NCBI GenBank assembly: GCA_965221905.1
Contig: OZ244922.1
Span: 160,001-224,000 of the forward strand
Source of the DNA: Chloroflexota bacterium
Lineage (GTDB): Bacteria; Chloroflexota; UBA11872; VXOZ01
Direction of reading: 5' to 3'
DNA length: 64,000 nt
The translations under genes were made by a program, and so were the position numbers. Shown piece after piece: positions 57,289-59,343 of the stretch; position 1 is the stretch's first letter, and each line of letters opens with the position of its first letter. The notes under the pieces were generated by a model. It had not been told where the DNA came from, made no database searches, and saw nothing but the letters and a program-made list of their open reading frames with translations.

Positions 57289-57777
57289 GGTCAAATGGGG
57301 TTAGGGTCAGCGAGTGCATGGCCGGGCATGGTAGCTATCTAAGTGCCAAGAAGCGGGGACAAGTGCCGTTCATTCTTCGACCCTTCGGCATGCTCAGGAC
57401 AGGCATGCTCAGGACGAACGGATACTGTTCCGTCGCCATGACGCAATGCCGGAGAGGCGGGGGACAAGCCCCTGTTCATCCTTCGACCCTTCGGCATGCT
57501 CAGGACAGGCAGGCTCAGGACGAACGGATACTATTTCGCTGCCATGACACGGTGCTGAGGAGCGGGGGACAAGCCCCGTTCAACCTTCGACAAGCTCAGG
57601 ACGAACGGATACTATTTCGCTGCCATGACACGGTGCTGAGGAGCGGGGGATAAGCCCCTGTTCATCCTTCGACAAGCTCAGGACGAACGGATACTGTTCC
57701 GCCATGACGCAATGGCGGGGAGGTGGGGGACAAGCCTCCCGTTCATCCTTCGACAGGCTCAGAAACTGTCTTGGGTG

Positions 57778-58713
57778 TCAAGGTGCGGTGGTTGGTTTCC
57801 AGGGCGACTGTGTATTGAGCATGCGGTTGAGGATGGTGAGCAGCTTGCGCATGCAGGCGGTAAGGGCCACTTTCTTGGGTTTGCCTGCGGCGCACAGTCG
57901 GTCATAGAAGATTTTGATCACCGGATTGAAGCGGGTTGCGACCAAGGTAGCCATGTAGAGACTGGCGCGCACCGGGGCTCTGCCGCCCCAGACGCTGCGC
58001 TTGCCCCGGTAGGTGCCGCTATCCCGGTTGTGGGGAGCGACCCCCACCAGCGCGGCAATCTGCTTGCGATTGAGCCTGCCCAGTTCCGGGAGTTCTGCCA
58101 GCAAGCAGGTAGCCGTAACCGGGCCAATTCCCGGTACGCTGGACAGCAGGTTCTCACGGGCACGCCACAGCGGGCTGGTTTGGACGAGCGCCGCCAGTTC
58201 CTGGTCCAGGCTATCGAGTTGCCGCCGCAGCCAGGCAATGTGGGACTTGATCTGGGGACGAACCCGCTTGGTGGCCCGGGGCAGACGGTTGCACTCGGCA
58301 GTCAGCATCGCGACCACCTGCCGCCGCCGCGCTACCAAGCCCCGCAACTCCTGCGTCTGCGCGTCCGGCAGTGCGCGCGCCTCCGGTTGCACCGCTTCTC
58401 CAAAGCGCGCCAGCATGCCTGCATCTATCGCGTCCGTCTTCGCCAACCGTCCCGTGGCGCGCGCAAAGTCCCGCACCTGCCGCGGGTTCACGACCGTCAC
58501 CTCCAGCCCCGCTGCCACTAACTCTCCTGCCACCGCGCTCTCCAGCCCACCCGTCGCTTCCAACACCACGCCCTGCGGCGCCAATGCAAGCAGACGCTCC
58601 CGCAGCTCCTCTATCCCTGCCGCATCGTTCCCAACCCACCACGACTGCGCTTCGTCAGCTACTCCCACGTCAAGCCGGTCTTGCGATACATCGATCCCCA
58701 CGTACACTGCCAT
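57778..58713 (-). CDS. IS110 DEDD recombinase/transposase
   Basis: GIDVS, LEATG, KTDAIDA (DEDD), RDSG serine loop, ACMRKLL; intact 311 aa. Confidence 0.96.
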
Positions 58714-58734
58714 TGCCTCCCTCCTGCTATACTA

Positions 58735-58900
58735 TGGCTGGCGCTCCCATGCAGTCCCTGCCTTACGGATACGGACTTCGTGTCCCGGTAACTGTTCGGG
58801 CTCTGGGGGAGCTCGGCAGGTGTGGCGACCACTCTGAGCCACGGTCTGCCAGACCTAGGACGAACCGGTCTGCCACGCCTGCTCCCATTCTATCTCCCTT
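58735..58900 (-). ncRNA. putative IS110 bridge RNA
   Basis: Contains GTTCGTCCT and GGCTCAG (match target) and ACAGTTAC and GTAAG (match donor) in the expected order; ends approximate. Confidence 0.8.
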
Positions 58901-59343
58901 TTCCAAGATATAAGGACGAACGGATACTATTTCGCTGCCATGACACGGTGCTGAGGAGCGGGGGACAAGCCTTCCGTTCAACCTTCGACAAGCTCAGGAC
59001 GAACGGATACTATTTCGCTGCCATGACACGGTGCTGAGGAGCGGGGGACAAGCCTCCCGTTCAACCTTCGACAAGCTCAGGACGAACGGATACTATTTCG
59101 CTGCCATGACATGGTGCTGAGGAGCGGGGGACAAGCCTTCCGTTCAACCTTCGACAAGCTTAGGACGAACGGATACTATTTCGCTGCCATGACACAATGC
59201 CGGAGAGGCGAGGGACAAGCCCCCGCGCTACGAGATGCTAATGAAGATTGAGCTTGCGCAGCCAAGGGAACATAAATTTAATTCAGGTGATAAGATTCGT
59301 GGAATGCTAACGGGCAAGCGGCAATCAGGCTAGTTACAAGGTT

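Follow-up and report, generated by a model that had tools for sequence, protein, structure and literature searches.

Bridge RNAs have been predicted for thousands of IS110 elements (Durrant et al., 2024, PMC11208160), and IS621 of Escherichia coli is the described system to which the element presented here comes closest in organization. This element lies at positions 58914 to 57761 on the minus strand of a 64,000-nucleotide (nt) window, the whole stretch of DNA that was analysed (contig OZ244922.1, positions 160,001 to 224,000, of the Chloroflexota assembly GCA_965221905.1), and from its sequence we conclude that it is very probably a complete, autonomous insertion sequence of the IS110 group with an IS621-like mode of action. 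The two share the domain order of the recombinase with its DEDD and serine residues, an RNA (here predicted) from the left end with a target loop before the donor loop, guide segments in the same places, a CT core, a junction promoter, targets of the repetitive extragenic palindrome (REP) type, a mismatch at position 7 of the left donor and handshake bases beside the right guides. They differ in the length of the recombinase (326 aa in IS621, 311 aa here), at least in target positions 6 and 10 (tG6 and tA10 in IS621, as given in PMC11208158, against T6 and G10), in the right target guide, which here has 7 nt, in the left donor guide, which in this family seldom matches the second core base, and in the host, an enterobacterium for IS621 and a sponge-associated Chloroflexota here. 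The IS1111 group has the same recombinase family and RNA guidance, but it is described as carrying its RNA in a long right end, with subterminal inverted repeats of 7-17 bp, whereas our element has a long left end and a short right one (PMC11208160). Judging from their descriptions, ISPpu9 and ISPpu10 of Pseudomonas putida are multi-copy IS110-family elements like this one; ISPpu9 is reported as inserted in REP sequences (PMC12288879), and ISPpu10 in copies of one conserved intergenic sequence, a 5' extension of which forms a stem-loop (10.64898/2026.03.19.712850).

The element is 1154 bp long and bounded by CT at both ends (1152 bp plus the core). On the minus strand, a 199-nt non-coding left end is followed by a ribosome-binding site, a single open reading frame (ORF), a 15-nt right end and the second CT. 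A left end of 199 nt together with a right end of 17 nt, CT included, places it in the IS110 group; the right end has the same 17 nt in 42 of the 52 distinct relatives. The element interrupts a tandem array of 81-83-bp REP-like units between two genes that, from reading the ORFs alone, we take to be hisH (56641-57288) and hisA (59344-60069). Its parts and the flanking arrays are the following:

58913-59221: REP-like tandem array on the left-target side, 83-bp unit, 3.7 copies, with a hairpin fold
58913-58914, minus strand: left copy of the CT core, at the junction of left target and left end, the same in 6/6 copies
58905-58910, minus strand: TATCTT, a -10-like hexamer that forms a complete promoter only in the circle, found in 41/52 distinct relatives
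58714-58912, minus strand: non-coding left end of 199 nt, encoding the putative bridge RNA
58716-58724, minus strand: ribosome-binding site GGAGGGAGG, with GGAGG aligned in the relatives
57778-58713, minus strand: recombinase gene, 311 aa, with DEDD (D8, E52, D94, D97) and S232, from domain search, structure match and alignment
57776-57781, minus strand: TTGACA, a -35-like hexamer overlapping the stop codon; TTGAC followed by A, T, G or C is there in 42/52 distinct relatives
57763-57777, minus strand: right end of 15 nt, with the left donor ACAGTTT (57769-57763)
57761-57762, minus strand: right copy of the CT core
57513-57762: REP-like tandem array on the right-target side, 81-bp unit, 3.1 copies

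The left junction reads ...ccGTTCGTC-CT/TATATCTT, with the CT at 58914-58913, and the right junction ...ACAGTTT-CT/GAGCC, with the CT at 57762-57761, so that the element begins TATATCTT and finishes ACAGTTT. From these two sequences follow the target GTTCGTC-CT-GAGCC and the donor junction ACAGTTT-CT-TATAT. The original prediction, an earlier reading of the letters of this DNA, had given the same two strings and a CT core, and we recovered both strings directly from the junctions and the core at both junctions in 6/6 genomic copies. In all six, insertion took place at the short CT common to donor and target, with no longer target duplication.

The 311-aa recombinase with its DEDD and serine residues, also part of that prediction, was confirmed by two Pfam domains and by alignment. 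PF01548, the N-terminal RuvC-like DEDD domain, matched with an E-value of 2.7e-21 (76.4 bits, cut-off 29), and PF02371, the C-terminal Tnp domain, with 1.7e-19 (70.4 bits, cut-off 21.3). When the protein was compared with solved structures by phmmer, ISCro4 (PDB 9t56, chain 9t56_A) was the best match (1.6e-44), a likeness of protein sequence, and IS621 (8wt6_A) matched with 2.4e-42; both matches are full-length, covering residues 4-305. In the phmmer alignment D8, E52, D94, D97 and S232 fall on D11, E60, D102, D105 and S241 of IS621, the residues named as catalytic in PMC11208158. All five are invariant across 18 aligned homologues of 60-81% identity, as is the S232-G233 pair, which aligns with S241-G242 of IS621. 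Homologues are abundant, with at least 8000 at E <= 1e-20; among the matches listed the closest is 98% identical and the next 82%.

Next, we studied the copies of the element and the sequence into which they are inserted. The host genome, a single 3.52-Mb contig of 58.3% G+C, carries six copies, five of them identical and the sixth with one mismatch over 1154 bp. Every copy sits at the same CT of a REP-like hairpin, with GTTCGTC as the left target in 4/6 copies and GTTCGCC in 2/6, and with the right flank CTGAGCCTG in 6/6. Their flanks differ past the ~30-nt REP core, and the copies are therefore separate insertions. The target covers the 5' arm and the loop edge of the hairpin, the fold of which has -7.7 kcal/mol (3 of 200 shuffles were equally good). 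In the genome the degenerate 14-mer GTTCGYCCTGAGCY has 103 occurrences and its reversed control 0, congruently with the proposal that the guides are programmed against the host REP. Against the 14-mer predicted from the guides there are 10 perfect, 131 one-mismatch and 194 two-mismatch free sites, while the reversed control gave 0, 1 and 27, respectively. Perfect sites are occupied in 4 of 14 cases, compared with 2 of the 327 sites with one or two mismatches (Fisher p = 2.6e-5). Both imperfect insertions have a C for T at position 6, where a U:G wobble with the bottom strand is still possible. The commonest REP variant, GTTCGTG, held no insertion in any of its 87 occurrences among the variants listed (52 + 31 + 4). 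Of the 201 genomes sampled from the phylum, 78 contain the REP 14-mer (including one match in the unpublished genome G145). It is expanded to 52-103 copies in 7/7 sampled genomes of the genus; two genomes of a sister genus had 51 and 21.

All four guide strings quoted in the original prediction are present on the minus strand at the positions it gave, the left donor string ACAGTTAC being found at 58795-58788. The guides and the hairpins that would display them are:

58816-58882, minus strand: target-binding hairpin (left-end nt 33-99), with outer stem, internal loop and inner hairpin
58857-58865, minus strand: left target guide GTTCGTCCT, in the same sense as left target plus core, 9/9, covarying with the left flank
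58834-58840, minus strand: right target guide GGCTCAG, complement of CT+GAGCC, 7/7
58832-58833, minus strand: target-loop handshake positions AG, the first of which pairs with donor position 7 (T)
58744-58812, minus strand: donor-binding hairpin (left-end nt 103-171), helices 5 and 6 paired in 90.9% and 98.4%
58787-58795, minus strand: left donor guide ACAGTTACC, positions 1-6 and 8 of which match ACAGTTT-CT
58762-58766, minus strand: right donor guide GUAAG (GTAAG in DNA), pairing with CTTAT with one G:T
58760-58761, minus strand: donor-loop handshake positions GC, the G of which pairs with target position 7 (C)

The first loop is thus complementary to both halves of the target, core included. 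Among 200000 dinucleotide-preserving shuffles of the 199-nt left end, the left target 9-mer appeared in 32 and the right 7-mer in 6289, and both were correctly ordered in 2. We also scanned one genome per species for relatives and obtained 80 loci with recombinases 58-82% identical, mostly from metagenome-assembled genomes (MAGs) of Chloroflexota and Dehalococcoidia, with some from Nitrospira, Methylomirabilis, Rokubacteria, Thermodesulfobacteriota and others. The left ends of the relatives begin CTTGTATCTT, those of the window element and its nearest relatives CTTATATCTT, and the right ends finish TTGAC[A/T]...AAGACAGTT[G/T]CT. The guide test covered 86 loci (the 80 relatives and the six copies), of which 70 were parsed; the 16 unparsed loci, left outside it, were L008, L009, L015, L024, L029, L030, L032, L035, L044, L047, L055, L061, L064, L067, L080 and L081. 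L034, which was misparsed, and L023, which had no flank match, were retained in the permutation test, where they count against guide matching. On one scaffold, the 70 parsed loci carry 44 distinct guide pairs, over which the guides covary with the targets. The left target guide matches its cognate flank at 6.64 of 9 positions and non-cognate flanks at 4.51, and the right target guide at 6.59 of 8 and 3.80. When each guide pair was represented by a single locus, the matches added up to 583; permutations gave 373 +/- 12 and reached the observed sum in 0 of 10000. The system therefore appears to be reprogrammable, as this natural variation of 44 guide pairs on one scaffold, each matched to its own flanks, would suggest.

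Several relatives illustrate this variation further. L007 and L011 come from one MAG, their proteins are 82% and 71% identical to that of the window, and they have differing guide pairs and targets, which we read as natural retargeting inside a single host. L013 and L014, from a Thermodesulfobacteriota MAG, use the same kind of target, CGTTCGTC-CT-GAGCG...GTCGAAGG, with adjusted guides, so that on this evidence the REP type and the element family both appear to cross phylum borders. In L025, L033, L072 and L040 the left junction is AT, TT or CC instead of CT, and in three of these (L025, L072 and L040) the left target guide has core-binding bases that fit the non-CT junction; these could be real cores or homopolymer errors of long-read MAGs. 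Finally, L036 (1228-1300) and L018 (1281-1305) have a partial left end ahead of the full element. The fragment in L036 stops precisely at the stretch encoding the left target guide plus CT; this stretch mimics half a target, which is reminiscent of the 'half-match' recombination named in the title of a 2026 preprint.

To describe the structure of the RNA we aligned 46 left ends with MAFFT, namely that of the window and one locus per guide pair, with L034 excluded. RNAalifold recovered an inner hairpin in each of the two domains and, in the first, the outer stem as well, and from these results we wrote by hand the structure used for counting covariation. In this structure 92.8% of the cells are paired. 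Shuffling lowers the value to 84.6%, with the observed one attained in 0 of 500 shuffles, and sliding the partners lowers it to 35-43%. Compensatory changes were seen in 18 of the 34 pairs. The outer stem of the target hairpin is paired in 98.4%, and 9 of its 12 pairs show compensatory changes. A single-sequence fold joins the two target guides by five pairs; across the family these positions are paired in 43.0%, a value close to the 42.1% of the shuffles. The in-loop pairs are thus not conserved, and the guides sit in the internal loop. The two internal-loop hairpins displaying the guides, as originally expected, are consequently what the covarying stems outline, with the guides not buried in stems.

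On the donor side, the start of the left end is the partner of the right donor guide, with pairing at 5/5 positions, one of them a G:T. The CTTGT/GCAAG combination of the family becomes CTTAT/GUAAG in the window element and its three nearest relatives, and the corresponding column pair 70:280 is G:C in 41 sequences, A:U in 4 and broken in 1. The left donor guide tracks the right end at position 3 (L023, L049 and L082) and at position 6 (L080), and matches the first base of the core in 36/46. For IS621, two handshake bases 3' of each right guide are described as pairing with positions 6-7 of the other duplex after exchange (PMC11208158). In our alignment the first handshake base of the target loop is a Watson-Crick partner of donor position 7 in 45/45 sequences (G:C 40, T:A 4, A:T 1), and that of the donor loop is pairable with target position 7 in 46/46 (C:G 37, T:G 5, T:A 3, G:C 1). 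The T:A group of the handshake is one clade, so the independent events are few.

When the two ends are joined over one CT, they give TTGACA, 17 nt and TATCTT, a match to the promoter consensus; IS621 is reported to have the same junction-promoter arrangement (Durrant et al., 2024, PMC11208160). In the integrated copy, the REP flank places GAAATA 17 nt before TATCTT, which agrees with TTGACA at 2/6 positions by eye. Two metatranscriptome runs from one sponge metagenome study contain contigs over parts of the recombinase gene (57777-58115 and 58278-58673), with 0-1 differences. Joints in two DNA runs, with skips of 59, 117 and 155 bases, were considered as signs of excision and rejected: they are single contigs with short sides, and we take them for relatives.

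Several of our results weigh against an IS621-like mode of action. The left donor guide has a mismatch at position 7, an A opposite the bottom-strand A, at the position where IS621 is reported to tolerate a mismatch (Durrant et al., 2024, PMC11208160). It matches the second core base in only 6/46 sequences, and in the same report the core is part of all four pairings. The donor hairpin has a weak basal helix, paired in 59%, and the advantage of the single-sequence fold over shuffles is slight (z = -1.38); as this fold is not significant alone, the comparative analysis was necessary. The relatives used there are not independent, the T:A and A:U states coming from one clade of four sequences. 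A promoter and terminator scan of the integrated element found no site inside it and two promoter-like ones in the REP units outside, so expression would need circles or read-through. The left end had no contig in the two RNA-library runs, data that are contigs from which start, strand and level are unreadable, so that this gap neither shows nor excludes transcription; the contigs of the gene may be DNA carry-over.

With these points in mind, we considered whether the element is structurally complete but now immobile, its old copies being kept alike by gene conversion or selection. We regard this as quite unlikely, although neither a circle junction, an empty site nor RNA of the left end was seen in the contigs of the sequencing runs. 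The element retains an intact ORF together with intact catalytic residues, guides and junction promoter, and five of the six copies are identical over 1154 bp with the sixth one base off. The spread within the genus bears on the same question. Among its 17 genomes, 15 have some match and 2 have none, and G197, from another species, has ~14 full copies of a 78% relative, a range of copy number that also speaks against immobility. In G207, from a sister species, there is a single copy (L087, G207:C1:264786-265939) at a REP array orthologous to that of the copy G000:C1:2344709-2345862, and the insertion could therefore be inherited. However, the flanks are only 92-94% identical whereas the copy itself has 2 differences over 1154 bases, which fits recent arrival or exchange better and points to a recent exchange or an independent insertion into the same array. 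Our reading is that the element, correctly recognized from its sequence in the original prediction, has apparently been mobile recently, and we infer that it probably still is.

A second possibility is that the protein alone picks the REP hairpin by its sequence or shape, the left end being a 5' untranslated region and the flank matches a by-product. The target is indeed a hairpin, and in the case of ISPpu10 a target stem-loop is reported to add specificity (2026 preprint, 10.64898/2026.03.19.712850). Nevertheless, recombinases that are 58-82% identical have quite different targets, each matching its own loop in a way that no permutation reached; the scaffold round the loops is fixed while its stems covary, and chance produced both target guides in only the 2 of 200000 shuffles given above. 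Targeting by the protein alone is consequently very improbable, and a contribution of the hairpin may be added to RNA guidance. That the copies spread with duplicating or recombining REP arrays instead of by transposition is scarcely credible, since even though two of them (the window copy and L001) lie within tandem REP arrays, L002, L003 and L004 are at single or few REPs outside arrays, the six flanks differ past the ~30-nt REP core, and in each of the six the identity stops right at the CT on either side.

An RNA-guided, IS621-like insertion sequence is thus the reading that we retain, and its steps can be proposed by analogy with IS621. The element would excise as a circle, in which the right end joined to the left end would build a sigma-70-type promoter over the single CT core. 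From this promoter a bridge RNA of ~155-160 nt would be transcribed from the left end, followed by the recombinase mRNA. The RNA would fold into two hairpins with internal loops, the first of which would pair with both strands of the REP-like target GTTCGTC-CT-GAGCC and the second with the junction of the element itself, ACAGTTT-CT-TATAT. Strands would then be swapped at the CT by the 311-aa DEDD/Ser recombinase, acting as a tetramer and aided by the two handshake bases beside the right guides, which would pair with position 7 of the other duplex. In this way the element would be inserted precisely and in one orientation at a single position of a hairpin that is repeated many times in the genome.

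With this element we add a clean new case to a mechanism whose description dates from 2024; the element follows the published rules almost point by point and leaves knowledge of that mechanism unchanged. It represents a textbook-clean natural bridge-recombinase system, found in an uncultured Chloroflexota associated with sponges, and its recombinase is among the smaller ones of the family. Its relatives form a natural reprogramming series, a single RNA scaffold with 44 guide pairs and matching targets, and give independent support, in a clade far from E. coli, to the handshake rule and to the tolerance of a mismatch at donor position 7. The series is useful for the mining of orthologues in genome engineering and for annotators, because REP-embedded IS110 copies and their RNAs usually go unannotated.

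For annotators it also matters that the sole Rfam family matching the left end does so on the wrong strand. This family, RF02234 (sX15, a small RNA of Xanthomonadaceae), scored 43.9 bits at 58736-58891 on the plus strand and matched 4 of 15 relatives, including L012 (1309-1462, minus strand; 56.3 bits against a cut-off of 55); it also matches L098 (1879-2037, plus strand). Every match is opposite to the recombinase strand, and RF02234 therefore models the antisense of the bridge RNA, while the family lacks annotation as IS110-related. In the Xanthomonas plasmid that defines it, sX15 scores 150.9 bits, lies antisense to the leader of a truncated IS110-type gene (the gene start was read by eye and is unscored) and holds the reverse complement of the donor-loop motif of the window element's family. 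The annotated 98-aa ORF beside it had no Pfam match, and a tblastn search of this plasmid with the window recombinase returned nothing significant. A 2011 report (PMC3300014) describes sX15 and its complement asX7 as mutually antisense, with ten homologues in Stenotrophomonas. We consider that asX7 is then probably a bridge RNA; if so, it was seen 13 years ahead of the description of the mechanism. Within the part of the literature examined, we found no paper tying sX15, asX7 or RF02234 to IS110. We also entertain, as a tentative and rather unlikely idea, that both strands of the left end are transcribed in this subgroup of IS110 and that an sX15-type antisense regulates the bridge RNA and hence transposition. 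The compact Chloroflexota clade, with its 44 natural guide pairs, would then also offer a ready-made set of bridge RNAs reprogrammed by nature.

Two minor features were noted in the REP array itself. At its hisH side there are 15-bp tandem repeats of the GGCATGCTCAGGACA type (57387-57415 and 57493-57521), which hold the REP motif CTGAGC on the other strand. The REP units before hisA each contain a promoter-like site pointing to this gene (58985-59013 and 59068-59096, plus strand), made up of TCGACA, 17 nt and TACTAT and matching 9 of 12 consensus positions; two such sites were seen where shuffles gave an expectation of 0.1.

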